The position numbers and the translations under genes are program-made. This document shows, one piece after another, positions 9,088-55,987 of a DNA stretch of 64,000 nucleotides. Source of the DNA: Thermoanaerobaculales bacterium (GTDB taxonomy: Bacteria; Acidobacteriota; Thermoanaerobaculia; Thermoanaerobaculales; Sulfomarinibacteraceae); contig JALOLD010000048.1 of assembly GCA_025456145.1 (NCBI GenBank), forward strand, positions 6,731-70,730. Direction: 5' to 3'. Position 1 is the first letter of the stretch. The number at the start of each line of letters is the position of its first letter. The notes below the pieces were generated by a model. It was not told the DNA's origin. It ran no database searches and saw only the letters and a list, made by a program, of their open reading frames with translations.

Positions 9088-9099
9088 GCGGGGGCAGCC

Positions 9100-10050: not shown

Positions 10051-10125
10051 ACCGATCGCGGTCGCCCTCTCGGTGCTCGAGCGCGACTCACCACGGCGCA
10101 GCCACGGCGTTTTCATATGCGATGT

Positions 10126-10158
10126 CTTCGTGTCTTCGCGCCTTCGTGGTTGCGGCGA
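10126..10158 (-). repeat. 33-bp CACGAAG-type repeat, right arm
   Basis: Reverse complement reads TCGCCGCAACCACGAAGGCGCGAAGACACGAAG. Confidence 0.75.
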
Positions 10159-10182
10159 TGCGATGGAGCATCGCCAGCCCGA

Positions 10183-11823: not shown

Positions 11824-11936
11824 AGGCGCCCCCGCCGCCGATCGCGCAGCGCGTCGCCGACCACGAAGACCGTGAGCACGAGGGGGAAGACCCAGAGGAG
11901 GAGGTGTGCGCCGAGCGACAGGCTGTGCTGCTCCAT
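11820..11936 (-). CDS. 38-aa single-TM small protein coupled to the symporter
   Basis: MEQHSLSLGAHLLLWVFPLVLTVFVVGDALRDRRRGRL; its TGA overlaps the symporter GTG (GTGA). Below the ORF-track size cutoff. Confidence 0.6.
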   Translation of the reverse strand: MEQHSLSLGAHLLLWVFPLVLTVFVVGDALRDRRRGRL

Positions 11937-11982
11937 GGCGGTAGCTTACTTGTTCCTTGACGGTCCCGGGTGCGATGACGGC

Positions 11983-12072
11983 GGCAGCGGCAGCGACAGC
12001 GGCAGCGGCAGCGACAGCGGCAGCGACAGCGGCAGCGACAGCGGCAGCGACAGCGGCAGCGTCAGCGTCAGC
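11983..12072. repeat. Hexamer tandem repeat G(G/A/T)CAGC x15
   Basis: Counted directly; lies in the divergent intergenic region between the putP unit and surE. Confidence 0.9.
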
Positions 12073-12135
12073 GGTAACCGTGGCGACAGCGAGGCCGAGT
12101 GCTACACTCCCGCGACCATGACGGGGGAGGTCGGG

Positions 12136-13002
12136 ATGAGGCGACTGGCGACGACGTTGGCGGTGCTGCTGCTCGGGGGCTTCGCGGCGACGACCGCCGC
12201 CCAGACCCCGACCCACGTCATGGTGGTCAACGACGACGGGATCGACTCGCCCGGTCTCGCGGCCCTCGCGGCGATCCTCGCCGCCGACCCGGCCTACCGG
12301 GTGACCGTGGTCGCGCCGGCCGAGCAGCAGAGCGGGGTCGGCCACGCCGTCGTGATCCGCCGCGAGATCGCGCTCGCGCGTCACGCCGACATCGGCGGCG
12401 CGACCGCCTGGTCGGTCGATGCGACTCCGGCCTCGGTGACCGTCGTCGGTCTCACCGTCGTGCTCGCCGACGACCCGCCCGACCTCGTCGTCTCGGGGAT
12501 CAACAAGGGCGAGAACCTCGGCCGCGCGGCCTGGTACTCGGGCACCCTCGGCGCCGCCCGCGAGGCGGCGTTGCGCGGCATCCCCGCCATCGCCATGTCG
12601 CTCGAGCTCGACTGGAGCGATCCCCGACCCGACTGGCAGGCCGCGGCGCGGCTCGCCAAGCCGGTCGTCGACGCCGTGACCCGCCGGCCGCTGCCGGAGG
12701 GCGTGCTGCTCAACGTCAACTTCCCGCGCGACACCACCGCCGCCCGCGGCTACCGGGTGACCCGGCTCGGGCTGGCCCCCGACGCGGTCAGCGGCTACGC
12801 GGTCGACCGGGAGGAGGGGGGCGTACGCTGGCTGACCAGCCGCTGGGCGCCGCCGGCCGGCGACGAGGCCGGGACCGACATCGCGGCGATCTCCGCCGGC
12901 TGGATCCCGCTCACCCCGCTCCAGCTCGACCAGACCGCCTTCACCGCGATCGCCGGGCTCCTCGAGCTCGAGCCCGAGCTGCCCGCGGCCGCCGGGGAGT
13001 GA
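12136..13002 (+). CDS. surE: 5'/3'-nucleotidase SurE with N-terminal signal peptide
   Basis: VVNDDGIDSPG, APAEQQSGVG, VVSGINKGENLG, YSGTLGAAREA, LNVNFP. ATG 12136 follows GGAGG. Confidence 0.9.
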   Translation: MRRLATTLAVLLLGGFAATTAAQTPTHVMVVNDDGIDSPGLAALAAILAADPAYRVTVVAPAEQQSGVGHAVVIRREIALARHADIGGATAWSVDATPASVTVVGLTVVLADDPPDLVVSGINKGENLGRAAWYSGTLGAAREAALRGIPAIAMSLELDWSDPRPDWQAAARLAKPVVDAVTRRPLPEGVLLNVNFPRDTTAARGYRVTRLGLAPDAVSGYAVDREEGGVRWLTSRWAPPAGDEAGTDIAAISAGWIPLTPLQLDQTAFTAIAGLLELEPELPAAAGE

Positions 13003-13128
13003 GCCGGCGACCGTCGCCGGGAGTGGACAGCCGGAGGCGGGCAGGCTAGAGTGATGCCCCCCGGCCACGGCGAGGCAATGGTGCGTCCGCCGCACCGGCC
13101 GACCGCCGCCGGGCGCCCAGGAGGATCG

Positions 13129-19054: not shown

Positions 19055-19131
<77 letters not shown>

Positions 19132-42407: not shown

Positions 42408-43298
42408 ATGCGCCGGCTCGCCATCGCGCTCGCTCTGATCTCGATCTCGACCGCGGCCTGCGGCGGCGGTTCCGTCGACCGGGTCGGGTCGCTGCGGGTC
42501 GCCGCCTCGATCCCGCCCCACGGCTGGCTGGTCGGCGAGGTCGGCGGCGGGGCGGTCGAGGTGGTGACGATCCTCGGCCCCGGCGACAGCCCGGCGACCT
42601 TCCAGCCCCCCGATGGCGCGGTCAGCCGGGTCATGTCGAGCCGCGTCCTGTTCACCGCCGGCGTTCCCTTCGAAGGGGGCGCCTGGCTCGAGGCGATCGC
42701 CGGCCGGCTCGAGGTCGTCCGGCTCGACGAGGGAATCGCCGACCGGGTGTTCGGCGCCGCCGACCACGCCTCCGACGGACCCGACGACGGCCACGGTCAC
42801 CGGCCCGGCACGGTCGACCCGCACGCCTGGCTGAGCCCGCGCCGGCTGATCGTCCAGGCGGCCAGGGTCGCCGCCACCCTCGCCCGGCTTGACCCCGGGA
42901 ACGCCAGGGAGTACGCGACCAACCTCGAGAGACTGACCGGGGAGCTGGCCGAGGTCGACCGGCGCTGCGCGTCGCTGCTCGCGCCGTTCCGGGGCCGCGA
43001 GCTCGTCGTCTTCCACCCCGCGTGGGGTTACTTCGCCGACGACTACGACCTCGTCCAGGTCGCCATCGAGATCGACGGCAAGGAGCCCTCCGACGCCGAT
43101 CTCACCGCGATCCAGGAGCGCGCCCGCCAGGCCGGCGTCGGGGTGGTCTACGTCCAGCCGCAGATCGCGGGACGCTCGGCGCGCGCCGTCGCCACCGCGA
43201 TCGGCGCCCGTCTCGAGACCCTCGACCCGCTCGCCCCGGATGTCGCGGCCAACCTGCAGCGAACTGCCGAGACGATCGCCGGTGGGCTCGATGGCTGA
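42408..43298 (+). CDS. znuA: Zn/Mn ABC transporter substrate-binding lipoprotein
   Basis: Lipobox-like TAAC, His-containing loop, DPHAWLSP, FHPAWGYFA, LDPL. Confidence 0.88.
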   Translation: MRRLAIALALISISTAACGGGSVDRVGSLRVAASIPPHGWLVGEVGGGAVEVVTILGPGDSPATFQPPDGAVSRVMSSRVLFTAGVPFEGGAWLEAIAGRLEVVRLDEGIADRVFGAADHASDGPDDGHGHRPGTVDPHAWLSPRRLIVQAARVAATLARLDPGNAREYATNLERLTGELAEVDRRCASLLAPFRGRELVVFHPAWGYFADDYDLVQVAIEIDGKEPSDADLTAIQERARQAGVGVVYVQPQIAGRSARAVATAIGARLETLDPLAPDVAANLQRTAETIAGGLDG

Positions 43299-44010
43299 GC
43301 CGGTCGCCATCCGGGTCGACGGCCTCGCCTTTCGCTACCCGGGGCGGGCCGAGGACGTCCTCCGAAACGTCAGCTTCACCGTCGGCACCACCGACTGGGT
43401 CGGTCTGCTCGGCCCCAACGGCGGCGGCAAGACGACGTTGCTGCGGCTCCTCCTCGGCCAGCTCGCGCCGACCGGCGGCCGTCTCGAGGTGCTCGGCGGC
43501 GCACCGGCCACCACCCGGCGGCGGGTCGGCTATGTGCCGCAGCACGCCGGGATCGACAGCGGCGTGCCGGCCTCGGTGCTCGATGTCGTTCTCCTGGGCC
43601 GGCTGTCGGCCGCGAGCTGGGGGCCCCGCTTCTCGGCCGGCGACCACGAGCTCGCCCGCTCGGCCCTCGACGAGACCCGCACCGCCGATCTCGCGGACCG
43701 CGCCTGGTCGACCCTGTCGGGCGGCCAGCGGCAGCGGGTGCTGATCGCCCGCGCCCTCGCCTCCCAGGCCGATCTGCTGCTCCTCGACGAGCCGACCACC
43801 GGGATCGACATCCACCGCGAGAAGGAGCTGCTGCGGCTGCTCGAGCGGCTCAACGAGCGGCTGCCGATCCTCATGGTGAGCCACGACATCGCCCTGGTCA
43901 GCCACCACATGGACCGCGCCCTGTGGGTCGACCGGCAGGTCAGCGAGCTCGAGGTGGGCGGCCTCGACTCGGACTCGCTCGAGCCCTTCTTCCACGGAGA
44001 GAGCCGGTGA
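43291..44010 (+). CDS. znuC: Metal ABC transporter ATP-binding protein
   Basis: GPNGGGKTT, LSGGQRQRV, LLLDEPT, VSHD. Confidence 0.9.
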   Translation: MAEPVAIRVDGLAFRYPGRAEDVLRNVSFTVGTTDWVGLLGPNGGGKTTLLRLLLGQLAPTGGRLEVLGGAPATTRRRVGYVPQHAGIDSGVPASVLDVVLLGRLSAASWGPRFSAGDHELARSALDETRTADLADRAWSTLSGGQRQRVLIARALASQADLLLLDEPTTGIDIHREKELLRLLERLNERLPILMVSHDIALVSHHMDRALWVDRQVSELEVGGLDSDSLEPFFHGESR

Positions 44011-44936
44011 CCCGGTTCTTCGCCGACGCGGTCGTCAACCCCTTCCTGTGGACGGGCCTCGCCGCCGGGCTGCTCGCCAGCGTCAGCTGCGGGGTCGTCG
44101 GACCCTATGTCGTCGCCCGCCGGCTGGTCTTCCTCGCCGGCGCCCTCGCCCACATCGCGATCGGCGGGGTCGGCGCCGCGATCTACCTGGCGGCGGCCCA
44201 CCCCACCCTCTTCGGATGGCTCGAGCCGATCCACGGCGGGCTCGCCGCCGCGGTCGTCGCGGCGCCGGTGCTCGCGGTTCTCCGCCACCGGCTGCGGGAG
44301 CGGCTCGACACCGTGGTCGGCGCGCTCTGGGCGGTCGGGATGTCGATCGGCATCCTGCTCATCAAGATCACCCCGGGTTACCACACCGAGCTGATGTCCT
44401 ACCTGTTCGGCAACATCAGCTTCGTCAGCCGGCGCGACCTGGTGTTCCTGGCGGTGCTGAGCGCCGTCGTGGTGGTCGTCGCGACCCTCTTTTACCGCCG
44501 GTTCCTCGCGCTCTGCCTCGACCCCGAGCAGGCCGAGCTGCGCGGCGTGCCGGTGCTCGCCACCGATGTCGTGCTCTTCCTGCTCATCGCGACCACGGTC
44601 ATTGTCCTCACCCAGATCGTCGGGCTGATCCTGGTCATCGCCCTGCTCAGCCTGCCGGCGGCGATCGGCGCCCGCCTGACGACCCGGCTCGGTCCCTCGA
44701 TGGCCGTGACCTTCGTGGTGTCGGCGCTGGCCACGACGGCGCCGCGGATCGTGGTCTACGGCACGCCGGTGAGCCCCGAGGCGGCGATCGTCCTGGCGAC
44801 CGCCGGGCTCTACCTGCTGGTCGCGCCCCGAGGCGGCGATCGTCCTGGCGACCGCCGGGCTCTACCTGCTGGTCGCTCTGTGGCGGCCCCCCAGGACCCG
44901 CTGAGCTCGAGAACGAATAAATTTCCGTTCGCTTGA
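44007..44936 (+). CDS. znuB: Metal ABC transporter permease; C-terminal tail altered by a 52-bp duplication
   Basis: LAHIAIGG, LMSYLFGNI, VGLILVIALL (ABC-3 family). Confidence 0.88.
   Translation: MTRFFADAVVNPFLWTGLAAGLLASVSCGVVGPYVVARRLVFLAGALAHIAIGGVGAAIYLAAAHPTLFGWLEPIHGGLAAAVVAAPVLAVLRHRLRERLDTVVGALWAVGMSIGILLIKITPGYHTELMSYLFGNISFVSRRDLVFLAVLSAVVVVVATLFYRRFLALCLDPEQAELRGVPVLATDVVLFLLIATTVIVLTQIVGLILVIALLSLPAAIGARLTTRLGPSMAVTFVVSALATTAPRIVVYGTPVSPEAAIVLATAGLYLLVAPRGGDRPGDRRALPAGRSVAAPQDPLSSRTNKFPFA
44773..44876. repeat. Perfect 52-bp tandem duplication
   Basis: 44773-44824 is identical to 44825-44876. Confidence 0.92.
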
Positions 44937-45013: not shown

Positions 45014-46210
45014 ATGCGGATCGCGCTCGCCTACTCGGGTGGCCTCGACACCACCTACTGCGTCTCCTGGCTGACCCGGGAGCGCCGGGCCGAGGTCGTC
45101 GCCGTGACCGTCGACACCGGTGGGATGACCGCCGGCGACGCCGTGCGGACCGCCGAGCGGGCCCGCGCCGCCGGGGCGGTCGAGCACCGCACCGTCGACG
45201 CCCGGCAGCGGGTGTGGGACGGCTATATCTCGACGCTGATCCGCGGCAACGTGCTGCGCGGCGCGGTCTACCCGGTGTCGGTCGCCGCCGAGCGGACCCA
45301 GCAGGCGGTCGAGGTCGCGCGCGTGGCGCGCGAGATCGGCGCCGACGCGATCGCCCACGGCGCGACCGGCGCCGGCAACGACCAGGTCCGGTTCGACATC
45401 GCCTGGCGGGTGCTCGTCCCCGATCTGCCGATCATCGCCCCGGTGCGCGAGCACGGGGTCGAGCGTTCGGTCTCGACCGCCTACCTCGAGGAGCACGGGC
45501 TCGAGGTCGCGCCGGGGACCGCGCTGACCTCGGTCAACCGCGGTCTCTGGGGCACCACCCTGGGCGGCGGCTGGACCCACGACCCGTGGCAGGGGCCGCC
45601 GGCCGACGCCTGGCAGAGCGGCCCGGAGCCCGCGGTCCCGCCCGGCCGCGAGCTGGTGATCGGCTGGCGGGAGGGCCTGCCGGTCAGCCTCGACGGCGCG
45701 GCTCTGGCGGGGCCGGAGCTGGTCGAGGCCCTCGAGGCCGCGCTGGCGCCCTACCGGATCGGTCGCGGCATCCACCTCGGCGAGACGGTGCTCGGCATCA
45801 AGGGGCGGATCGGCTTCGTCGCCGGCGCCGCGCAGCTGCTCATCGCCGCCCACCGCGAGCTCGAGAAGCTGGTCCTGACCCGCTGGCAGAGCTTCTGGAA
45901 GGACCACCTCGGCCAGTTTTGGGGCGACCGGCTCCACGAGGGTCAGGCCTTCGACCCGGTGATGCGCGACATCGAGGCGATGATCACCAGCTCGCAGCGC
46001 CGGGTCGCCGGCGACACCCGGGTGGCCCTCGCCGAGGGCCGGTTCCTGGTGACCGGGGTGCGCAGCCCGATGAGCCTGATCGACCCGGCGGTCGCGACCT
46101 ACGGCGAGAGCCACCGGCTGTGGAGCGGCGAGGAGGCGCGCGCCTTCGCGGCGATCGCCGGCATTCCCTCCCGGCTCGCCGCCGCCGCCGGAGAGGCGCC
46201 GTCATGGTGA
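45014..46210 (+). CDS. argG: Argininosuccinate synthase
   Basis: LAYSGGLDT, AHGATGAGNDQVRF, GIKGRIGF. Confidence 0.93.
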   Translation: MRIALAYSGGLDTTYCVSWLTRERRAEVVAVTVDTGGMTAGDAVRTAERARAAGAVEHRTVDARQRVWDGYISTLIRGNVLRGAVYPVSVAAERTQQAVEVARVAREIGADAIAHGATGAGNDQVRFDIAWRVLVPDLPIIAPVREHGVERSVSTAYLEEHGLEVAPGTALTSVNRGLWGTTLGGGWTHDPWQGPPADAWQSGPEPAVPPGRELVIGWREGLPVSLDGAALAGPELVEALEAALAPYRIGRGIHLGETVLGIKGRIGFVAGAAQLLIAAHRELEKLVLTRWQSFWKDHLGQFWGDRLHEGQAFDPVMRDIEAMITSSQRRVAGDTRVALAEGRFLVTGVRSPMSLIDPAVATYGESHRLWSGEEARAFAAIAGIPSRLAAAAGEAPSW

Positions 46211-47250
46211 CCTCGAAGCTCCGGCTCGACCGGATCGCCTCGTCGACCCGCAACGCCCACCTCCCGGCCGAGGTGCTCATCGGGCCCGAGGTCATCGCCG
46301 AGGAGGGACGGATCCTCGCGGTCCGCATCACCAACGAGAAGGCGGTCTACAACCAGGTCGAGGACCCGACCGGCCGGCTCATCCGGCTGCGCGCCGGCGA
46401 CGTCCTCGCCGGGGTGCTCGGGGCGCGCCGCGCGCTGCGCGGCTACGAGGGCGAGGTGCCCGGGTCGCTCGCCCCGGGCGACACCGTCGAGGTGCTCAAC
46501 CTGGGCGGCGTGCTCGGCCGGTGCACCGCCGGCAACCCCGATCTGGGACCGCCGTTCACCGCCGAGGTGCTCGGCGCGGTGCTGACCTTCCCGCGCACCG
46601 GCGACCGGGTCGGCCGGCCGGCGACGATCCGCGAGGGTGCGGTCCCGGTCGCCGACGAGCTCGCCGAGGGGCCGCCGATCGTCGCGGTCGTCGGCACCTG
46701 CATGGACGCCGGCAAGACCGTCGCCGCGAGCGAGGTCGTCCGCGGGCTGTCGCGGGCCGGGCTGACGGTCGCCGGGGTCAAGCTGACCGGGGTGTCGCTG
46801 CGCCGCGACGCCCTGTCGATGCTCGACGCCGGGGCGGTCGAGGCCCTCACCTTTACCGACGCCGGGGTCGTCTCGACCGACGACGCCGCGGCCCTGCCGA
46901 CCGCCTACGGCCTGCTCAACGAGCTCGCCCGGCGCTGCCGGCCCGAGGTGATCGTCGCCGAGCTCGGCGACGGCATCCTCGGCGAGTACGGCGTCGCGAC
47001 GCTGCTCAGCGATCCGCAGCTCGTCGCCCGGCTCGCCGCGGTGGTGTGCTGCGCCCCCGATCAGGTCGGCGCCTGGGGCGCGGTCGAGATCCTCCGCACC
47101 CGGTTCGGGATCGCCCCGACCGCGATCTCGGGGCCGGCCACCGACAACGCGGTCGGCTGCCGCTTCATCCGCGACCGGCTCGGGCTGCCGGCGGCCAACG
47201 CCCGGGCCGGCGACGGCGCCCTCGCCGCGATCGTCCGGGAGGCGTTGTGA
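46204..47250 (+). CDS. DUF1611-like P-loop protein embedded in the arg operon (candidate N-acylglutamate synthase)
   Basis: Overlaps the argG stop and argC start; VVGTCMDAGKT, KLTG...RD, FTDAG..ST, VAELGDGILGEYG. Confidence 0.7.
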   Translation: MVTSKLRLDRIASSTRNAHLPAEVLIGPEVIAEEGRILAVRITNEKAVYNQVEDPTGRLIRLRAGDVLAGVLGARRALRGYEGEVPGSLAPGDTVEVLNLGGVLGRCTAGNPDLGPPFTAEVLGAVLTFPRTGDRVGRPATIREGAVPVADELAEGPPIVAVVGTCMDAGKTVAASEVVRGLSRAGLTVAGVKLTGVSLRRDALSMLDAGAVEALTFTDAGVVSTDDAAALPTAYGLLNELARRCRPEVIVAELGDGILGEYGVATLLSDPQLVARLAAVVCCAPDQVGAWGAVEILRTRFGIAPTAISGPATDNAVGCRFIRDRLGLPAANARAGDGALAAIVREAL

Positions 47251-48299
47251 GCGCACCGACCGACCGGCTCAGGGTCGCGGTGGCCGGGGCGACCGGCTAT
47301 GTCGGCGGCGAGCTGCTCCGGCTGCTCGCCGACCACCCGGCGGTCGGCGAGCTGCGCGGCGCCTCGACGAGCGCCGCCGGCCGGCGCTGGTCCGAGATCC
47401 ACCCGCACTTCCTCAACCGCCCCGACGACCCGGTCCTCGAGGCCTTCGACCCGGCCGCCCTGGGCGCCTGGGCGGACGTCGTCTTCCTCGCCCTGCCCCA
47501 CGGCGAGTCGCAGCGCGTCGTCGACGCGGTGGCGGAGGGCCGGCCCCAGCTGGTCGTCGACACCGCCGCCGACTTCCGGTTCGCCGATCTCGCGCGCGCC
47601 GAGGCGACCTACGGGCCGCACCGACGGCCCGAGCTCCTCGGAGCGTTCGCCAACGGGCTCGCCGATGTCGAGGGCGAGGCGCTCCGAGGCGCCGACCGGA
47701 TCGCCGTCCCCGGCTGCTTCGCCACCGCGGCCCTGCTCGCCTTGTGGCCCCTCGCGCCGGTGCTCGGGCCCGCCTCCCACCCGGTGTGCTGGGCGGCGAC
47801 CGGGTCGTCGGGCTCGGGCGCGACCGCCAAGCCGACGACCCACCACCCGACGCGGGCCCACAACTTCTTCGCCTACGGTCTCGCCGGTCACCGCCACGAG
47901 GCCGAGCTCGCCGAGCGGCTCGCCGCCTGGTGCGGCCCCGGGGCGCCGCGCTGCTCGCTGCTCACCCACTCCGCGCCGCTGGTCCGCGGGATCCACGCCA
48001 CCCTGCTGGTGCGCCCGGCCGAGCCGGTCGCCGACCCGATGGAGCTCCTCCGGCGGGCCTATCGCGACCGGCCCTTCGTCCACCCCCTCGACCGCCCGCC
48101 CGAGCTCGCGGCGGTGGCCGGGACCAACCACGCCCACCTCCACGCGGCGACCCGCGACGGCGGACGCGAGGTCGTCGTGCTCGCGGTCATCGACAACCTC
48201 GTCAAGGGCGCCGCCGGTCAGGCGGTCCAGGCGATGAACCTCGCCCTCGGGCTCGCCGAGACCGCCGGTCTCGGGCACGGAGGGATGACGCCGTGCTGA
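47247..48299 (+). CDS. argC: N-acyl-gamma-glutamyl-phosphate reductase
   Basis: GATGYVGGELLRLL, LALPHG, VPGCFATA, IDNLVKGAAGQAVQAMN. Confidence 0.93.
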   Translation: MSAPTDRLRVAVAGATGYVGGELLRLLADHPAVGELRGASTSAAGRRWSEIHPHFLNRPDDPVLEAFDPAALGAWADVVFLALPHGESQRVVDAVAEGRPQLVVDTAADFRFADLARAEATYGPHRRPELLGAFANGLADVEGEALRGADRIAVPGCFATAALLALWPLAPVLGPASHPVCWAATGSSGSGATAKPTTHHPTRAHNFFAYGLAGHRHEAELAERLAAWCGPGAPRCSLLTHSAPLVRGIHATLLVRPAEPVADPMELLRRAYRDRPFVHPLDRPPELAAVAGTNHAHLHAATRDGGREVVVLAVIDNLVKGAAGQAVQAMNLALGLAETAGLGHGGMTPC

Positions 48300-49456
48300 C
48301 CCAGGCCAACCCCGCCGAGCTGCCGGTCTACGCGCGGCTCGCCCTGCAGCCCGAGCGCGGCGCCGGCGCCACCGTGGTCGGCGCCGACGGCCGGCGCTTC
48401 CTCGACCTCTACGGCGGCCACGCGGTCGCGGTGAGCGGCCACTGTCACCCGCGGGTCGTCGCCGCGATCCGCGAGCAGGCCGAGCGGCTGCTCTTCTACT
48501 CCAACGCCGTGCCGCTGGCGAGCCGCGACCGGCTGCTGACCATCCTCGCCGAGATGGCGCCCAAGCCCCTCGACCAGGTCTTCCTGGTCAACTCGGGGGC
48601 CGAGGCCAACGACGTCGCGCTCCAGCTCGCCCGGCGGACCACCGGCCGGCGCCGGATCGTCGTTCTCGAGGGCGGCTTCCACGGCCGCACCCTGGCCACC
48701 CTCGCCGCCTCGGGCATCCAGCGCTACCGCGACCTCGCCGACTCGAGCGGCGGCCAGGCCCTGCTCGACCTCACGGTGGTCGCGCCCTGGGACCGGCCCG
48801 AGCGGCTGCCGGCGCTCATCGACGAGACCATCGCCGGGGTCATCGTCGAGCCGGTCCAGGGGCTCGCCGGGGCGCGCGACGTCGGCGCCGAGACGCTAAG
48901 GACGCTGCGCCGGGCCTGCGACGCGGCCGGCGCGGTCCTGATCTTCGACGAGGTCCAGTGCGGCTGCGGCCGGACCGGCGCCTTCACCGCCGCCCAGGCG
49001 ACCGGCGTCACCCCCGATGTCCTGACCCTGGCCAAGGGCATCGCCGCCGGTCTGCCGATGGGCGCGGTGCTGCTGGCGCCGCGGATCGCCCGGCAGGTCG
49101 CCCAGGGCGACCTCGGCACCACCTTCGGCGGCGGACCCTTGCCCTGCGCCGCCGCCGCCGCCAACCTCGAGGTGATCCGCGACGAGGACCTGCCGGGTCG
49201 CGCCCTCGTCCTCGAGCGACGGCTCCGGCGCGGCCTCGCCGACCTCCGGGCGGTGCGCTCGATCTCGGGGCGCGGGCTGCTCCTCGGCGTCGTCCTCGAC
49301 CGTCCCGCCCGCCCCGTCCAGCTCGCGCTCTTCGAGCGCTCGATCCTGGTCGGCTCGGCCAACGATCCCTCGGTCCTCCGCCTCCTGCCGCCCCTCGTCC
49401 TGACCGACGGCGAGGCCGACCACTTCATCGCCGCCCTCCACGAGGTGCTGTCATGA
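48293..49456 (+). CDS. argD: Acylornithine aminotransferase (class III PLP)
   Basis: NSGAEAN, FHGRT, LIFDEVQCGCGRTG, LAKGIAAG, TTFGGGP. Confidence 0.92.
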   Translation: MLTQANPAELPVYARLALQPERGAGATVVGADGRRFLDLYGGHAVAVSGHCHPRVVAAIREQAERLLFYSNAVPLASRDRLLTILAEMAPKPLDQVFLVNSGAEANDVALQLARRTTGRRRIVVLEGGFHGRTLATLAASGIQRYRDLADSSGGQALLDLTVVAPWDRPERLPALIDETIAGVIVEPVQGLAGARDVGAETLRTLRRACDAAGAVLIFDEVQCGCGRTGAFTAAQATGVTPDVLTLAKGIAAGLPMGAVLLAPRIARQVAQGDLGTTFGGGPLPCAAAAANLEVIRDEDLPGRALVLERRLRRGLADLRAVRSISGRGLLLGVVLDRPARPVQLALFERSILVGSANDPSVLRLLPPLVLTDGEADHFIAALHEVLS

Positions 49457-50478
49457 GCCCGCCCCGTCTGATCGGAACCGACGACTGGCCGGACGACGCG
49501 GTCCGCGCCCTCCTGACCCGCGCCGCCGAGCTCAAGGCCGGCGCCGCCGGCCGCTCGCTCGCCGGCAGGACGCTGATCATGGTCTTCCTCAACCCCTCGC
49601 TGCGGACCCGGACCTCCTTCGAGATCGCGATGGCCCGGCACGGCGGCCAGGCGGTGGTCCTCGAGCCGGGCCGGGGGGCGTGGGCGATGGAGACCCGGCA
49701 CGGCGTCGTCATGGACGGCGACGCGGTCGAGCACATCGTCGACGCCGCCCGGGTGCTCGGCCGCTACGGGCAGGCGGTGGCGGTCCGCGCCTTCCCCTCG
49801 GCCACGACCTGGACCGAGGCGCGACGGGACGACGTCGTCCACGCCTTCGCCCGCCACTCCGGAGTGCCGACGATCAACCTCGAGTCGGCGCGGCGCCACC
49901 CCTGCCAGGGCCTCGCCGACGCGCTGACCCTCCAGGAGAGCTTCGGCGAGCGGCCCAAGGGACGCCGCTTCGTCCTCGCCTGGGCCTGGCACCCGCGGCC
50001 GCTGCCCACCGCGGTGCCGGCTTCGGCGGCGATCGCCGCGGCCCGGCTCGGGATGGAGGTGGTCATCGCCCGGCCCCCCGGCTACGACCTCGACCCCGAC
50101 GATGTCGCGGCGATCGAGGCGGTGGCCGGACGCAACGGCGGCTCGCTGTCGATGACCGCCGACCTCGACCAGGCGGTGGCCGGCGCCGACGCGGTCTACG
50201 CCAAGAGCTGGGGCTGCCTCGCCGACTACGGACGGCCCGAGGTGGAGGCCGCCCGGCGGGCGCCGCTGCGCAGCTGGATCGTCGACGAGCGGCGGATGGC
50301 GTCGACCCGCGACGGCGCCGGGATCTTCCTCCACTGCCTGCCGGTGCGGCGCAACGTCGTCGTCACCGACGGCGTGCTCGACGGCGCGTGGTCGCGGGTC
50401 ACCGATCAGGCGGAGAACCGGCTGCACGTCCAGCGGGCGGTGCTCGAGACCATGCTCGAAGGCGAGGTGCGCGGATGA
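49453..50478 (+). CDS. argF: N-acylornithine carbamoyltransferase (ArgF', AOTCase/SOTCase type)
   Basis: NPSLRTRTSF, VMDGDAVEH, WAWHPRPLPTAV and HCLPVRRNV are the signatures of the acylated-ornithine transcarbamylases. Confidence 0.92.
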   Translation: MSPPRLIGTDDWPDDAVRALLTRAAELKAGAAGRSLAGRTLIMVFLNPSLRTRTSFEIAMARHGGQAVVLEPGRGAWAMETRHGVVMDGDAVEHIVDAARVLGRYGQAVAVRAFPSATTWTEARRDDVVHAFARHSGVPTINLESARRHPCQGLADALTLQESFGERPKGRRFVLAWAWHPRPLPTAVPASAAIAAARLGMEVVIARPPGYDLDPDDVAAIEAVAGRNGGSLSMTADLDQAVAGADAVYAKSWGCLADYGRPEVEAARRAPLRSWIVDERRMASTRDGAGIFLHCLPVRRNVVVTDGVLDGAWSRVTDQAENRLHVQRAVLETMLEGEVRG

Positions 50479-51392
50479 CCGAGCTCGTCAACGGACTCAA
50501 GGACGCGTTGGAGTACACCCGGCTCTACCGGGAGCAGGTCTTCGTCGTCAAGCTCGGCGGCGAGGTCCTGTCGTCGGCCGAGGCCCTCGACAACGTGGCG
50601 ATCCAGGTCGCCCTGCTCGAGTCGCTGTCGATCCGGGTCCTCGTGGTGCACGGCGGCGGCCCGCAGGCGAGCGAGCTGTCGCGCCGGATGGGCTTGACCC
50701 CCGAGGTCGTCGCCGGCCGCCGGGTGACCTCGCCCGAGGTCCTCGAGGTGGCCAAGATGGTCTATGGCGGCCGGCTCAACGTCGACGTGGTCGCCGCGCT
50801 GCGCGGCCACGGCGTGTCGGCGGTCGGGCTGACCGGCATCGACGCCGGGTTGGTCACGGTCCACCGGCGGCCGCCGGTCGAGGTCACCGACGACGCCGGC
50901 ACCACCCGGACCGTCGACTTCGGCGAGGTCGGCGACGTCGACTCGGTCGACACGACGCTGCTCGACGTGCTGCTCCCGCGGGGCCACGTCCCGGTGGTCG
51001 CCTCGCTCGCCGCGGACGGCGCCGGCCGGGTGATGAACGTCAACGCCGACACCCTGGCGGCGCGGCTCGCCGCGGCCCTCGGCGCCGAGAAGCTGATCTA
51101 CCTGACCGGCGCCCCGGGGCTGCTGCGCGACGCCGCCGACCCGACCTCGCTGGTCGCCTTCGCGGCGCCCGAGGACCTCCAGGCGCTGCTCGGCTCGGGC
51201 TCGGTCAAGGGCGGGATGCGGCCCAAGGTCGAGGCCTGCCTGACGGCGGTCAAGGGCGGCGTCCGGCGCACCCACATCATCGACGGACGGACCCCCGACG
51301 CGCTGCTCCTCGAGCTCTTCACCGGGGTCGGCAGCGGCACGATGATCGTCGGCGAGCGCGAGAAGCGGAGCTACGAGGCGGCCGGCCGGTGA
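50475..51392 (+). CDS. argB: Acylglutamate kinase
   Basis: VVKLGG, VHGGGPQ, GRRVT, NVNADTLA, GGMRPKV. No fused GNAT domain. Confidence 0.93.
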   Translation: MTELVNGLKDALEYTRLYREQVFVVKLGGEVLSSAEALDNVAIQVALLESLSIRVLVVHGGGPQASELSRRMGLTPEVVAGRRVTSPEVLEVAKMVYGGRLNVDVVAALRGHGVSAVGLTGIDAGLVTVHRRPPVEVTDDAGTTRTVDFGEVGDVDSVDTTLLDVLLPRGHVPVVASLAADGAGRVMNVNADTLAARLAAALGAEKLIYLTGAPGLLRDAADPTSLVAFAAPEDLQALLGSGSVKGGMRPKVEACLTAVKGGVRRTHIIDGRTPDALLLELFTGVGSGTMIVGEREKRSYEAAGR

Positions 51393-52459
51393 TCGACCCG
51401 GTCTCCCTCCTCGTCGACCTCGTCCGGACGCCGAGCCCGTCCGGCGACGAGGGCCGGGCGGCCGGGGTGCTCGCCGACTGGGCGCGGGCGCACCGGCTCG
51501 AGCCGGAGATCGACGACGCCGCGGTCCGGCTGGTCGTCGGCGGGACCCGACCGGGACCGACGCTGCTTCTCGCCTCGCACCTCGACACCGTGCCGCCGGG
51601 CGAGGGGTGGTCGGTCGCGCCCTATGACGGGGTGCTGCGCGACGGCCGGCTGACCGGTCGCGGAGCGGTCGACGCCAAGGCCTCGGTGGCCGCGATGGCG
51701 GCCGCCGCCGCGGCTCTCGCCGCGGCCGGCGGTCCCGCCGCCGGCCGGCTGGTCGTCCTCGCCACCTACTCCGAGGAGACCCGCGACACGACGATGCCGC
51801 GCGCCCTCGAACGGCTGGGCGGCGCCCCGGAGGCCGCGGTGGTCGGCGAGCCGACCTCGCTCGAGCCGTGCATCGCCCAGCGCGGCCAGCTGCTGGTCGA
51901 GCTTTCCTGGACCGGCGACCAGGTCCACGCCGGCTGGGCGGCCGGCCGGCGCCCGGCGCCGGTCAACGCGATCTCGGTCGCGGCCCGCGACCTGGTCGCC
52001 CTCGAGGGGCTGCGGTTCGAGCGTCAGCACCCGCTGCTCGGACCGGTGGCGGTCAACCCGACCGAGATCGCCGCCGGGGTCGCGCGCAACGTCACCCCGC
52101 CCATCTGCTCCGCCATGCTCGACATCCGCACCACCCCGGCCTACGAGCACGCCGAGATCGTGGCGATGCTCCGCGAGCGGCTCGCGGCCCGGGTCGAGGT
52201 CTACTCCGACCGGCTGGTGCCGGCCGAGACCCCGGCCGGCTCGCCTCTCCTCGCGGCGGTGACGAGGGTCCGTCCGGCGTCCGTCCCCTTCGCCTCGCCG
52301 ACCTGCTCGGACTGGGTCTTTCTGCGCCACCTCGACGCGGTCAAGCTCGGGCCCGGCGACTCGCGGCGGTCGCACACCGCCGATGAGGCGATCGAGCTCG
52401 AGGAGGTCCGCGCCGGCGCCCGGCTCTACGCCGACATCGCACGGGAGGTCCTGAGATGA
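51389..52459 (+). CDS. argE: M20 deacylase (ArgE-like; acts on N-acylcitrulline in an ArgF' pathway)
   Basis: SHLDTVP, GRGAVDAK, SEE, GEPT, GPGDSRRSHTADE. Confidence 0.88.
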   Translation: MIDPVSLLVDLVRTPSPSGDEGRAAGVLADWARAHRLEPEIDDAAVRLVVGGTRPGPTLLLASHLDTVPPGEGWSVAPYDGVLRDGRLTGRGAVDAKASVAAMAAAAAALAAAGGPAAGRLVVLATYSEETRDTTMPRALERLGGAPEAAVVGEPTSLEPCIAQRGQLLVELSWTGDQVHAGWAAGRRPAPVNAISVAARDLVALEGLRFERQHPLLGPVAVNPTEIAAGVARNVTPPICSAMLDIRTTPAYEHAEIVAMLRERLAARVEVYSDRLVPAETPAGSPLLAAVTRVRPASVPFASPTCSDWVFLRHLDAVKLGPGDSRRSHTADEAIELEEVRAGARLYADIAREVLR

Positions 52460-53823
52460 AGCGCAGCCTGTGGGGCGACGGCCGAGGGCTCGACGAGTCG
52501 ATCGCGGCCTACACCGCGGGCGACGACCGGCGGTGGGACCAGCGGCTGCTGCGCTGGGACGTCATCGGCACGATGGCCCACGCCGCCGGCCTCGCCCGGA
52601 TCGGGCTGCTGGAGGCGGCCGAGCACGCGGCCCTGGCCGGCGAGCTCGCGCGGACCCTCGCCGACGCCGACGCCGGGATCTTCGCGGTCACCGAGGACGA
52701 CGAGGACGCCCACTCGGCCCTCGAGCACCGGCTCATCGACCGGCTCGGCGAGCTCGGCGAGAAGGTCCACGCCGGCCGGTCGCGCAATGACCAGGTGATG
52801 GCGGCGCTCCGGCTCTACCTGCGCGCCGAGCTGATCGAGCTGCAGCGCGAGGTGATCGCCGCGGCGCGCGCCCTGCTCGGCTTCGGACGGGCCAACGCCT
52901 CGGTCGTCCTGCCCGGTTTCACCCACCTGCGGCGGGCCATGCCGTCGTCGATCGGCCTGTGGGCGGCGGGTTACGCCGAGGTGCTCCTCGACGATCTCGG
53001 GCCGCTCGGCGCCGCTCTCGAGCTCGCCGACCGCGGACCCCTGGGCAGTGCCGCCGGCTACGGCGCGCCGCTGCCCCTCGACCGCCGGGGCGTGTCCGAC
53101 GCCCTCGGCTTCGCCGCGCCCCAGCTCGCCAGCACCGCGGTCCAGCTGTCGCGCGGCAAGCTCGAGGCGGTGGTGCTCGGCGGGCTGTGGACGGTGGCCC
53201 GCGATCTCGCGGCCCTGTCCTGGGACGTCATCCTCTACACCTCCGACGAGCACGGCTATCTGGTGCTGCCCGGCGAGCTCGCGACCGGCTCGAGCATCAT
53301 GCCGCACAAGCACAACCCCGATGTCTTCGAGCTCACCCGCGGCCGCGCCGGGGTGGTCGCCGGGCTCGCGGTCCAGGCGATGGCGGTGGCCGGCTCGCTG
53401 CCCGGCGGCTACCACCGCGATCTGCAGCTCACCAAGGGACCGGTGATGGAGGGGATCGACACCGTCCGGGCGATGCTCCGGATGGTCGCCGACGCGGTGC
53501 CCCGGCTCGGCGTCGACGCCGGGCGCTGCGCCGCATCGCTGTCCGGCGACCTGCTCGCGACCGACGAGGTCTTCCGCCGGGTCCGCGCGGGGGCGCCGTT
53601 CCGCGCCGCCTACCGCGAGGTCGCCGCCGAGATCGCCGGCGGCGCGGTCCCGCCGGCCCTCGAGCCGGCCGAGGTCCTCGCCGTGCGGCGCCACCTCGGG
53701 GGGGCCGGGGCGCCCGCCCTCGACGAGCTCGAGGAGGTCGCCGGACGGGCCGAGCGGCGGCTCGACGAACGCCACCGAGCCGCGTCCTCGGCAATCGACC
53801 GTTTGATCGGGGCGAGCCGGTGA
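52456..53823 (+). CDS. argH: Argininosuccinate lyase
   Basis: HAGRSRNDQV, PGFTHL, TGSSIMPHKHNPDVFEL, GYHRDLQ. Confidence 0.95.
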   Translation: MKRSLWGDGRGLDESIAAYTAGDDRRWDQRLLRWDVIGTMAHAAGLARIGLLEAAEHAALAGELARTLADADAGIFAVTEDDEDAHSALEHRLIDRLGELGEKVHAGRSRNDQVMAALRLYLRAELIELQREVIAAARALLGFGRANASVVLPGFTHLRRAMPSSIGLWAAGYAEVLLDDLGPLGAALELADRGPLGSAAGYGAPLPLDRRGVSDALGFAAPQLASTAVQLSRGKLEAVVLGGLWTVARDLAALSWDVILYTSDEHGYLVLPGELATGSSIMPHKHNPDVFELTRGRAGVVAGLAVQAMAVAGSLPGGYHRDLQLTKGPVMEGIDTVRAMLRMVADAVPRLGVDAGRCAASLSGDLLATDEVFRRVRAGAPFRAAYREVAAEIAGGAVPPALEPAEVLAVRRHLGGAGAPALDELEEVAGRAERRLDERHRAASSAIDRLIGASR

Positions 53824-54293
53824 TGAGCGCCGTCGAGCGCCGCCGCCGCGCCATCCTCGAGCTCGTCGCCTCGCGCCGGCTCGAGACCCAGGAGCAGCTC
53901 GTCGCGGCCCTCGTCGAGCGCGGGCTCGGGGCGAGCCAGGCCTCGGTGTCGCGCGACATCGCGGCGCTCCGGCTGGTCAAGCTCGACGGCCGCTGGGCGG
54001 CCCCCGCCCTCGCCCCGCCGACCACCGACCCCAACGAGGAGCGGATCGCCGGCCGGCTGCTCGCCGTCGCCGCGGCGGGCGACCACCTGCTGGTGCTCTC
54101 GACGCCGCCCGGCGAGGCCCAGGGGGTGGCGCTCGCCCTCGACCGTCTCGCCCTCTCGGGCGTCGTCGGGACGGTCGCCGGCGACGACACGATCTTCGTC
54201 GCGGTGGTCGACGGCGCCGCCGCCGCCGCCCTCGCCGGGCGGCTCGGCGCCCTGATCCGCGGGTCGGCGACGCCTAGCCCGGAGCGCGCCTGA
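53823..54293 (+). CDS. argR: Arginine repressor
   Basis: TQEQLV, SQASVSRDI, GTVAGDDTIF. Confidence 0.93.
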   Translation: MSAVERRRRAILELVASRRLETQEQLVAALVERGLGASQASVSRDIAALRLVKLDGRWAAPALAPPTTDPNEERIAGRLLAVAAAGDHLLVLSTPPGEAQGVALALDRLALSGVVGTVAGDDTIFVAVVDGAAAAALAGRLGALIRGSATPSPERA

Positions 54294-54356
54294 CCCCTGG
54301 AATCAGGCTGAGGCTTCTTCGTTCCAGATCCGGCACCCGATGCGACGTCCCGGAAA

Positions 54357-54389
54357 CCGTCGCAAGCGCGAAGGCACGAAGACACGAAG
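54357..54389 (+). repeat. Third copy of the 33-bp CACGAAG-type repeat
   Basis: CCGTCGCAAGCGCGAAGGCACGAAGACACGAAG; 28/33 identical to 5808-5840. Confidence 0.7.
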
Positions 54390-54513
54390 GGGATGGTGGT
54401 GCGGGCGTCCCGCTCGCAGTCTTGCGATCGACTGGATCGAGATACCGATGGCTGGGGCGAGCGTGAGTCGGGGCCGGTCAGGCCCTGAGCGAACCGGACA
54501 GGTACGGTTCGGG

Positions 54514-55311
54514 CTAGGGGCTGGTCAAGGACCAGAAGCCGGTCGTCCCGTCCTCGAAACCGTCGGCGAAGACGAGGTCGGTGGCGAACGGCCACTCGAC
54601 CTGCCGGGCCTGGTAGACCTCGGCCGGGGCGGTCGCCGGGACGGGGTCCTGGGCCCAGGCGGTGAGCTGGATCTGGTCGTACAGGTTCCAGCTCGTAGCG
54701 TCGAAGGTGATCGGCTGGACGACGGTCTCACAGGCGCCGGCGGCGACCGCGATGTCGACCCCGGCGAGACCCTGCATCACCGTGTTGCGGTTGTAGGACT
54801 CGGTCAGGGGGTAGGTCGCGAGCGACTGGACGACGAACACCCGCATCGTCTTGCCCGTCCCGCCCGGCTCGACGCACACCTCGACCGAGACCTCGAAGGT
54901 CGGGCCGGCGAGCTGGGTCGCCATGATGTCGACCGTGACATCGGTGGGAATCGCCTGCCGGGCGATGAGCTTGCTCTCGAAGGTGCTGATCGGCCAGGCG
55001 TCGAACAGCCCGTCGTAGTAGTACGACGGGTAGCCGAGGAAGATCGGGTCGTAGAAGGCCTTGCGGGCGTCACCCCAGGGGGTGGCGTAGCTGTCGGTGT
55101 GGTGGATCGAGATCGACGCGAACGTGTCGGGGTAGGTCTCGACGAGGTACGTGACCGTGGGACCCGCGGTCGTGCAGGTGCCTCACCAGTCCGCCGTGAT
55201 GTACTCCCCGAGCACCGTACGCTCCGCCGAGAAGACCTCTCCGACCGTGAAGATCGCCGCGGCGAGCGCCGCGCCGACCACCAGGGAAGCTCCGAAGGGC
55301 CCTGTTCTCAT
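54514..55311 (-). CDS. Predicted selenoprotein A: secreted Omp28-like thioredoxin-fold protein, W-U-G-T-C, 265 aa
   Basis: GAGGAGG before ATG 55311; signal peptide; ...EYITADW-TGA(55185-55183, codon 43)-GTC-TTAGP... continues in frame into ORF 54514-54924; ends VFADGFEDGTTGFWSLTSP. Confidence 0.85.
55153..55171 (-). promoter_or_regulatory. Candidate bacterial SECIS hairpin A
   Basis: GACCGCGG-GTC-CCACGGTC, starting 11 nt after the TGA; 7 of 8 pairs (one C.A mismatch). Confidence 0.7.
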
Positions 55312-55331
55312 GATCGCCTCCTCCTCGGCGA

Positions 55332-55368
55332 AGATTGTATACAATCGCTCTCACATTGTATACAATCT
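55332..55368. promoter_or_regulatory. Twin palindromic operators ATTGTATACAAT in the divergent promoter region
   Basis: GATTGTATACAATC (55333-55346) and ATTGTATACAAT (55355-55366); centres 21 bp apart. Confidence 0.8.
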
Positions 55369-55420
55369 GCAAGCGTCAGCCCAACGACCCGGCGACGGGT
55401 CGGGGCGCCGGAGGTGGCCG

Positions 55421-55987
55421 GTGACGGAAGCTCGCTCGCGCAGGACCAACCTCGCGATCGCTCGCCCGATGTGGCTCGCGATCGTGCTCGTCGCGGTCGC
55501 CGCGACCGCCGCCGCCGGGCCGCCGCCCGACTTCCGGCTCCAGGACCTCGACGGAAACTGGGTCACCCTGTCCGACCACGTCGGCAAGGACGTGGTCTAT
55601 GTGACCTTCTGGGCGACCTGGTGCGTGCCCTGTCGGCGCGAGATGCCCTACCTCCAGCAGCTCCACGAGGACCTCGCCGACCGGGGCCTGACGATCATCG
55701 GGGTCAACACCGACCCGCCGGGGACGACGAGCAAGATCAAGCCCTACATCAAGCAGTACAAGATCGGCTACCTCACCGTCCTCGACCCGAACAACAACGT
55801 CCTCGACAAGTACAACCCGACCCGCGAGCTGCCCTACGCGGTGCTCGTCGACCGCACGGGCAACGTCCACGAGGTCTTCGCCGGCTACCGCAAGGGCGAC
55901 GAGGTGCGGCTGCGCGAGAAGGTCCTCGAGCTGCTCGACGCACCGACCGGCGGGGAGGGGGAGGCTCCGTCCGGTGACCCGAGCTAG
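55421..55987 (+). CDS. TlpA/ResA-family thiol-disulfide reductase
   Basis: GGAGG before GTG 55421 (alternative ATG 55469); signal or anchor segment; PDFRLQDLDG, FWATWCVPCRREMP, LPYAVLVDRTG. Confidence 0.92.
   Translation: MTEARSRRTNLAIARPMWLAIVLVAVAATAAAGPPPDFRLQDLDGNWVTLSDHVGKDVVYVTFWATWCVPCRREMPYLQQLHEDLADRGLTIIGVNTDPPGTTSKIKPYIKQYKIGYLTVLDPNNNVLDKYNPTRELPYAVLVDRTGNVHEVFAGYRKGDEVRLREKVLELLDAPTGGEGEAPSGDPS

Follow-up and report, generated by a model that had tools for sequence, protein, structure and literature searches.

A candidate N-succinyl-L-glutamate synthase encoded within an arginine biosynthesis operon of a Thermoanaerobaculales bacterium

The gene considered here, referred to as X, is the second gene of an arginine biosynthesis (arg) operon of a Thermoanaerobaculales bacterium (Acidobacteriota; Sulfomarinibacteraceae). 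It lies in a stretch of 64,000 nucleotides (positions 6,731 to 70,730 of contig JALOLD010000048.1, assembly GCA_025456145.1), hereafter called the window, and positions are those of the window unless another locus is named. The nine genes argG-X-argC-argD-argF'-argB-argE-argH-argR are all located on the plus strand between 44.9 and 54.3 kb, where the GC content is 0.73-0.77. X (46204..47250) encodes a protein of 348 amino acids (P0001), a candidate N-succinyl-L-glutamate synthase, and from the comparisons presented below we consider it probably the enzyme with which this organism begins arginine biosynthesis. In a preliminary description of the window, made from the sequence alone, X was suggested to be a new N-acylglutamate synthase filling the first step of the pathway by non-orthologous replacement, mainly since the operon seemed complete in all other respects and since X carries a P-loop resembling that of the DUF1611 proteins.

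The identity of all eight genes flanking X (argG, argC, argD, argF', argB, the M20 deacylase gene, argH and argR) is given by Pfam matches above cut-off, while the curated cut-offs of NCBIfam are passed by argC, argB and argF' only, the remaining operon genes being best matches below cut-off. The argininosuccinate synthase gene argG (45014..46210; PF00764, Arginosuc_synth, and PF20979) has an uncertain start, the in-frame candidates being TTG 44933, ATG 44966, ATG 44993 and ATG 45014. Downstream of X are argC (47247..48299; Semialdhyde_dh in Pfam, TIGR01850 with 298 bits versus a cut-off of 233.6), the N-acylornithine aminotransferase gene argD (48293..49456; PF00202, Aminotran_3), which starts at GTG 48293 and not at 48296, and argF' (49453..50478; OTCace_N/OTCace, NF003384 with 431 bits versus 288), encoding an acylornithine transcarbamylase with the signature of an N-succinylornithine transcarbamylase (SOTCase). 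These are followed by the N-acylglutamate kinase gene argB (50475..51392; TIGR00761, 219 bits versus a cut-off of 151), in which AA_kinase is the sole Pfam domain, by the argE-like M20 deacylase gene (51389..52459; PF01546 and PF07687, best NCBIfam match TIGR01910, below cut-off), the putative product of which would be an N-succinylcitrulline desuccinylase, by the argininosuccinate lyase gene argH (52456..53823; PF00206, Lyase_1 only; TIGR00838 with 269 bits, just under 279.5) and by the arginine repressor gene argR (53820..54293; PF01316 and PF02863). Neighboring genes overlap by 4 or 7 nt at every junction (in order ATGGTGA, GTGA, GTGCTGA, ATGA, ATGA, GTGA, ATGA and GTGA), X sharing 7 nt with argG and 4 nt with argC, and the genes of the operon are therefore translationally coupled. 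The gapless operon with overlapping starts and stops, the coverage of each step after N-acylglutamate, the lack of ArgA, ArgJ and GNAT domains and the unfused state of ArgB and ArgH, all claimed in the preliminary description, are thereby confirmed.

The genome assembly to which the window belongs is 91.75% complete and has 142 contigs with a total length of 4.56 Mb. Searched as a whole, it gave no match to ArgJ (PF01960), to the NAT domain (PF04768) or to NF005921 (label PRK07922.1), presumably the model of the short mycobacterial-type N-acetylglutamate synthase (NAGS), and the ArgA model (TIGR01890) matched only the kinase part of ArgB. Six generic GNAT proteins are encoded on other contigs; these look like RimI-, ArsN- or aminoglycoside-type enzymes, are all below cut-off, and none of them matches the NAGS models at E 0.001 or better. 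X itself has no GNAT, ArgJ or NAT domain according to Pfam and NCBIfam. Because the operon covers all the later steps and ArgJ, ArgA, NF005921 and PF04768 were not found genome-wide, the pathway gap at the first arginine step in this genome is real. The carrier-protein route with LysW and ArgX was considered for the operon and ruled out, as no ATP-grasp or LysW gene is found and argF' is present.

The acyl group of the pathway was left generic in the preliminary description, and the sequence of ArgF' allows it to be narrowed down. Among the PDB sequences ArgF' scores 328 bits to the N-acetylornithine transcarbamylase (AOTCase) of Xanthomonas campestris and 193 bits to the SOTCase of Bacteroides fragilis, and the top matches are Glu92 mutants of the X. 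campestris enzyme, with the E92V entry 3l06 as the best. In the alignment to 3l06, 3l02 and 3m4n, ArgF' has Val where the wild-type enzyme has Glu92 (codon 49726-49728), Pro for Asn185 (50005-50007) and Val for Lys302 (50359-50361; X. campestris positions 92, 185 and 302). According to a review of transcarbamylases, AOTCases have E/N/K and SOTCases have A/S/P/V/Q, P and V/I/E at these three positions (PMC4581275), and E92V is reported to turn the X. campestris enzyme to succinylornithine (Shi et al., 2007, as told in GapMind, 2026, bioRxiv 2024.10.14.618325). The signature is shared by the relatives: for 57 of the 80 X loci analyzed below the flanking sequence retrieved includes argF', and the triplets are VPE (37), APV (10), SPV (3), VPV (2), APE (2), VPI (1), IPE (1) and VPK (1). 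In other words, 56 of the 57 proteins have V, A or S at position 92 and the remaining one has Ile, position 185 is P in all of them, and position 302 is E, V or I in 56.

Because ArgF' carries the SOTCase signature V/P/V, the pathway intermediates are most likely N-succinylated, as far as can be judged from the sequence. That X would make N-acetyl-L-glutamate instead, with acetylated intermediates as in Xanthomonas, seems very improbable to us: such a route would fit the NCBIfam equivalog that ArgF' passes with its 431 bits (N-acetylornithine carbamoyltransferase), its higher score to the AOTCase than to the SOTCase, and the acetyltransferase nature of DgcN, the DUF1611 protein discussed below, yet each of the three specificity positions has a residue typical of SOTCases, the best PDB match is the very mutant that, according to GapMind, is switched to succinylornithine, and Glu is found at position 92 in none of the 57 neighboring ArgF' proteins. 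The N-succinylornithine pathway of Bacteroides fragilis, reportedly described by Shi and colleagues in 2006, is the closest known parallel in having the same specificity residues as ArgF' of the window and an ArgE-type deacylase acting after carbamoylation. It differs in that ArgF' of the window is overall nearer to the Xanthomonas AOTCase, and in that the first enzyme here would be X and not a GNAT, which the Bacteroides arg cluster presumably has.

At the level of domain models X is nearly invisible. It reaches no Pfam or NCBIfam cut-off and has sub-threshold matches only, to MobB in NCBIfam (E 0.003) and to PF07755 (DUF1611_C; E 0.0063, 16.4 bits versus a cut-off of 25), the latter over 36 residues of the P-loop only, and phmmer found no match to X among PDB sequences at E 10 or better. 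The AlphaFold model, built with a 66-sequence alignment (pLDDT 97.2, pTM 0.93), has two domains, an all-beta N-terminal domain (residues 1-145, 46204..46638) and a P-loop domain of the BioD/DUF1611 type (approximately residues 150-348). In a Foldseek search of the pdb set only the P-loop half was matched, with signal recognition particle GTPases and BioD at the top; the N-terminal domain has no clear match among the solved PDB folds, and residues 1-150 have no match in Pfam. Invariant or near-invariant residues of the N-terminal domain are R41, K46, Y49, E53, R58, R75 and R135, and this domain, rich in invariant Arg and Lys, may bind the dicarboxylate substrates. The Walker A motif VVGTCMDAGKT noted in the preliminary description is indeed present at residues 162-172 (46687..46719), with G170 and K171 invariant and T172 conserved in at least 90% of the sequences. 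Three further residues stand out in the P-loop domain: K193 (46780..46782) is invariant in 66 of 66 sequences, D202 of an RRD motif (46807..46809) is at least 90% conserved, and E253 of an ELGDG motif (46960..46962), also at least 90% conserved, is a Walker-B-like acid aligned with EGAGG of BioD and EGQG of DUF1611.

The relationship of X to these two families was analyzed by profile-profile comparison (hhalign) of the X family with alignments of 13 bona fide DUF1611 and six BioD proteins of the same phylum. DUF1611 scored 91.1% (E 1e-6) over X columns 145-345 only, and BioD scored 94.0% (E 1.4e-7) over columns 145-324; BioD also ranked first (E 1.5e-4) when the PDB sequences were searched with the X-family profile. 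K193 is aligned with the invariant BioD Lys37 and D202 with an Asp that is moderately conserved in the BioD profile, both falling in gaps of the DUF1611 profile, and the invariant His of the DUF1611 motif QHAP is aligned with Ala284 of X. The P-loop Thr and the Walker-B Glu are retained in DUF1611. The resemblance to DUF1611 pointed out in the preliminary description is real but weak, with BioD equally close. True DUF1611 genes are present in two of the genomes that have X (G024 and G089), and in the genome of the window no match at E 1e-20 or better was obtained either with PF07755 or with the BioD model TIGR00347, X included. Because X scores under the Pfam cut-off, has an unrelated N-terminal domain and coexists with true DUF1611 genes in G024 and G089, it is to be regarded, on these alignments, as a distinct branch between DUF1611 and BioD and not as a DUF1611 member, the kinship with DUF1611 being at the superfamily level only.

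These alignments bear on the chemistry that X might use. BioD, the dethiobiotin synthetase, is a single domain of approximately 220 residues which closes the ureido ring, whereas X has an extra domain of 145 residues and sits in arg operons. K171/T172 of the P-loop, K193 and E253 of X all align with BioD invariants (the second Lys, K37, and the Walker-B Glu among them). BioD, CobB/CobQ and formyltetrahydrofolate synthetase work through an acyl or carbamoyl phosphate intermediate, which an amine attacks in the next step. Lys37 of BioD is in contact with both the gamma-phosphate and the carbamate, and Mg2+ is held by Asp54 and Glu115. Since the second lysine of BioD is kept in X and absent from the DUF1611 profile, ATP-dependent ligation of succinate and glutamate is a live alternative to transfer from succinyl-CoA. 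By analogy with BioD, X would then be a succinate-L-glutamate ligase having the same role in the pathway: the P-loop would bind Mg-ATP, succinate would be converted to succinyl phosphate, and attack by the alpha-amino group of glutamate would give N-succinylglutamate, ADP and Pi, with the family-specific beta domain binding both dicarboxylates and no acyl-CoA being used. The slightly nearer position of BioD in the profile comparisons, the alignment of K193 and E253, the DUF1611 gaps at K193 and D202, the Ala in place of the DUF1611 His, and the invariant or nearly invariant Walker A residues K171 and T172 would all suit such a reaction. However, intact motifs are no proof of ATP use, since the P-loop Thr and the Walker-B Glu occur in DUF1611 too, and DgcN, the sole characterized relative acting on glutamate, has been described as acetyl-CoA dependent. 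We therefore hold ligation, with succinate and ATP as donors via succinyl phosphate, to be a possible but rather unlikely variant, and name succinyl-CoA, by analogy with DgcN, as a tentative and slightly likelier donor.

DgcN is a D-glutamate N-acetyltransferase according to its EC number, as quoted in a citing text, and the title of its structure (EC 2.3.1.312; PDB 7XRJ). The P-loop domain of X is remotely homologous to that of DgcN and the other DUF1611 proteins (PF07755; PDB 7XRJ, 2G0T and 2OBN), while the N-terminal domains do not align. X also differs by having K193 and D202 at gaps of the profile and by lacking the DUF1611-invariant His, and its predicted role, biosynthetic succinylation of L-glutamate, differs from the catabolic acetylation of D-glutamate by DgcN.

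Homologues of X are numerous. At least 4,604 were found in clusters at 90% identity, the 120 listed being all unnamed or 'hypothetical', and the clusters at 50% identity amount to 1,408. When a pattern derived from a 12-sequence alignment was run against contigs representing one genome per species, 592 of the 598 matches encoded relatives of X, the nearest belonging to a Thermoanaerobaculales metagenome-assembled genome (MAG; 84% identity). The Cys of the GTCM stretch in X alternates with Ser among the relatives. For the best 80 of the 592 loci, which belong to Thermoanaerobaculales, Gemmatimonadales, Myxococcota, Planctomycetota, Elusimicrobiota, Holophagae (including the cultured Geothrix limicola) and Gammaproteobacteria, the surroundings were searched by tblastn with the nine proteins of the window. 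In all 80 loci, which at the phylum level represent Acidobacteriota, Gemmatimonadota, Myxococcota, Planctomycetota, Elusimicrobiota and Proteobacteria, X is the immediate neighbor of argG, of argC or of both and has the same orientation, and the gene order is mostly as in the window wherever the fetched flanks reach far enough.

Fusions and reduced clusters add to this picture. A fusion protein of 626 residues (P0206), seen on four contigs, consists of a domain 40% identical to X and a kinase domain resembling ArgB, mirroring the build of ArgA, in which a kinase is combined with an acyltransferase. X-ArgC and X-ArgG fusions also exist, each on a single contig and each joining overlapping neighbor genes; these may be frame errors and are given little weight. 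In two genomes an X approximately 37% identical to that of the window heads a minimal X-argC-argD-argB cluster (G088, L121 10158-14233, minus strand; G033, L122), with no argG, argF' or argE nearby; flanks were scanned in G088 only, where the cluster is bordered by RsmI, PdxJ and unrelated open reading frames (ORFs). X thus travels with exactly the three enzymes that turn N-acylglutamate into N-acylornithine.

The same clusters bear on the idea that X is a nucleotide-dependent accessory protein, which might regulate ArgB, act as its partner or serve the M20 ArgE as a metallochaperone of the SIMIBI type, with an unrecognized GNAT elsewhere acting as the synthase. We consider this improbable. 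X occurs in the minimal clusters lacking argE and in two loci (L036 and L075) without detectable argE, and Steroidobacter also lacks argE according to the GapMind study (bioRxiv 2024.10.14.618325). X has no Cys/His metal motif, the Cys of GTCM varying with Ser, and no NAGS model is matched by any of the six GNATs mentioned above. A metallochaperone for ArgE, in particular, was rejected, given that X is found in clusters without argE and has no such metal motif.

If X replaces the known synthases, as foreseen in the preliminary description, it should be anticorrelated with argA and argJ. We sampled 301 genomes spread evenly over the phylum Acidobacteriota, related genomes among which are not independent. 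X-like matches were present in 88 of them: 74 strong ones (full length, E <1e-100), two cut by contig ends and 12 of a weaker tier (E 1e-59 to 1e-69). ArgJ was found in 83 genomes, ArgC in 179, ArgA above cut-off in four and argF' (NF003384) above cut-off in 64, the ArgC matches including LysY of the lysine pathway (as in G226). The anticorrelation is complete, with ArgJ in none and ArgA in none of the 76 X-bearing genomes; neither enzyme was found in five X-bearing genomes of other lineages. ArgC accompanies the strong X in 74 of 74 genomes and ArgJ in 82 of 83, and X is present in 61 of the 64 genomes with argF'. These tallies include three unpublished genomes, two with a strong X (G024 and G049) and one with a weaker paralog (G152); when they are removed, 72 genomes with a strong X remain, with no overlap with ArgJ or ArgA, and X is present in 60 of 63 argF' genomes. 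In terms of known systems, the classical NAGS enzymes (ArgA with its amino acid kinase (AAK) and GNAT domains, ArgJ, the short GNAT NAGS and the Xanthomonas-type AAK and NAT N-acetylglutamate synthase/kinase) have the same predicted reaction class and place in the pathway as X and no sequence or fold kinship with it, and the distributions are mutually exclusive in the genomes searched.

The three argF' genomes without X can each be accounted for. In G184 the contig starts inside argC, so that the position of X is off the contig. In G181 argC lies directly after Mla transporter genes and argG is on another contig (bases 784-1269, minus strand), the contig edge at which argG sits on the minus strand placing the gene after it off the contig. 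In G144, where X was not found, the operon holds a fusion of AA_kinase and NAT (PF04768) of 438 residues (L089 6068-7384, plus strand), which, from its domains, is a predicted bifunctional N-acetylglutamate synthase/kinase of the Xanthomonas type. Thus, in the only argF' operon that is intact and yet has no X, a NAT domain takes its place, which is the pattern expected of a functional replacement and argues against an accessory role. Two genomes of the same family as that of the window (G143 and G165) have neither X nor any ArgC match and appear to lack the whole pathway rather than to have another first enzyme. In G226, of the same order and the closest relative with an ArgC match, this match is clustered with homocitrate synthase and LysX (RimK/LysX ATP-grasp), the cluster comprising also ArgC/LysY itself, ArgB/LysZ and ArgD/LysJ (L087, G226:C20, minus strand, approximately 7200-13100); it encodes the LysW-type lysine pathway and not arginine synthesis.

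The idea of a new synthase is in itself not new. The same first-step role is predicted for a Steroidobacter protein in GapMind, 2026 (PLoS Genet; bioRxiv 2024.10.14.618325). There, the hypothetical protein in question, ACG33_RS14135 (A0A127FCT3) of Steroidobacter denitrificans, is placed within an arg cluster, arg operons are stated to be the location of its homologues 'virtually always', its potential orthologues and those of Pseudomonas ArgA are 'never found together', it weakly resembles DgcN 7XRJ, and A/P/S/V is present at position 92 in 90% of 70 neighboring ArgF' proteins (bioRxiv 2024.10.14.618325). Over 327 residues, X shares 48% identity (E 3e-93) with a protein of a Steroidobacteraceae MAG (P0335), reached via a gammaproteobacterial homologue (that of L075) which is 72% identical to P0335. 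Because of this identity X can be placed, with the Steroidobacteraceae relative rather than the sequence of ACG33_RS14135 itself as the reference, in the predicted N-succinylglutamate synthase family. The family shares with X the arg operon setting (argB, argC, argD, argF', argE, argG, argH and argR), the lack of ArgA in the same genome, A/P/S/V at position 92 of the neighboring ArgF' and the weak likeness to DgcN 7XRJ. In contrast to Steroidobacter, which is stated to be without argE (bioRxiv 2024.10.14.618325), the operon of the window, in a high-GC genome, has a clear argE-like gene. Added here are an independent test of the distribution within one phylum, in which every exception is accounted for, the replacement of X by NAT in G144, the minimal module of four genes, the fusion of X with a kinase, the N-terminal domain without a clear fold match and the BioD-type catalytic signature.

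The surroundings of the operon offer some further observations. Directly upstream (43240-44936, plus strand) are genes for an ABC transporter ATPase and an ABC-3 (metal-type) permease, and a 24-nt direct repeat, in two copies approximately 50 nt apart, is found at 44801-44880 near the 3' end of the permease gene. No operator was found when it was sought as an inverted repeat upstream of argG; an AT-rich patch with 5-bp inverted arms (GAACGAATAAATTTCCGTTC), which closely precedes the region of the argG start, is a possible ArgR operator. Right behind argR is an ORF of 545 codons (54340-55977, plus strand), for which neither Pfam nor NCBIfam gave a match at E 0.01 or better. The sole RNA gene found in the window is a tRNA-Met (CAT) at 19055-19131 (plus strand), and the GC content falls to 0.59-0.64 at 6-10 kb.

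Taken together, the linkage to arg genes in 80 of 80 loci, the complementarity to ArgJ, ArgA and NAT and the minimal X-argC-argD-argB module support the non-orthologous replacement of the first enzyme by X. In the pathway as we infer it, X would N-succinylate L-glutamate to N-succinyl-L-glutamate, its P-loop domain binding either ATP or the nucleotide moiety of the acyl donor. ArgB, ArgC and ArgD would carry this product to N-succinylornithine, which the SOTCase-type ArgF' would carbamoylate; the M20 ArgE-like hydrolase would then remove the succinyl group to give citrulline, and ArgG and ArgH would finish the pathway.

Several points weigh against this interpretation or narrow it. One of the six generic GNATs elsewhere in the approximately 92% complete genome could, formally, be the synthase. 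The succinyl assignment is derived from three residues as set out in a review (PMC4581275), and it may not hold for the whole X family, because argF' of the NF003384 type, at E 1e-70 or better, is absent from 15 of the 76 X-bearing genomes; these lineages may use an ordinary ornithine transcarbamylase and possibly another acyl group. The anticorrelation of X with ArgJ reflects in part the type of the pathway, because pathways with ArgE and ArgF' use no ArgJ whatever X does. The weaker X-like paralogs in 12 of the 301 genomes (one of them the unpublished G152) are unlinked to arginine genes, nine of the 12 carriers having no ArgC and three having ArgJ, and the X fold is therefore not tied to the first-step role. 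Finally, the synthase role is listed as 'not experimentally confirmed' for the family in Table 1 of the study that predicted it (GapMind, 2026, bioRxiv 2024.10.14.618325). As to the paralogs themselves, the one in G002 (L084 6902-7915, plus strand) lies between genes for a P-type ATPase, a flavin reductase and a Ser/Thr kinase and just clears the Pfam cut-off of DUF1611_C (26.2 versus 25).

Annotation has long had a gap at the first arginine step in Acidobacteriota, Gemmatimonadota, Myxococcota, Planctomycetota and some Proteobacteria, and the X gene is present in at least 592 species-level genomes of the collection. If X is the synthase, its carriers are prototrophic for arginine even though automatic annotation takes them for auxotrophs, and X would be the third, unrelated solution to the first step after the GNAT ArgA and ArgJ. 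The conserved BioD-type residues make the choice between transfer from succinyl-CoA and ATP-dependent ligation directly testable; should ligation be true, X would represent a new enzyme class for the first arginine step, mechanistically distinct from DgcN.

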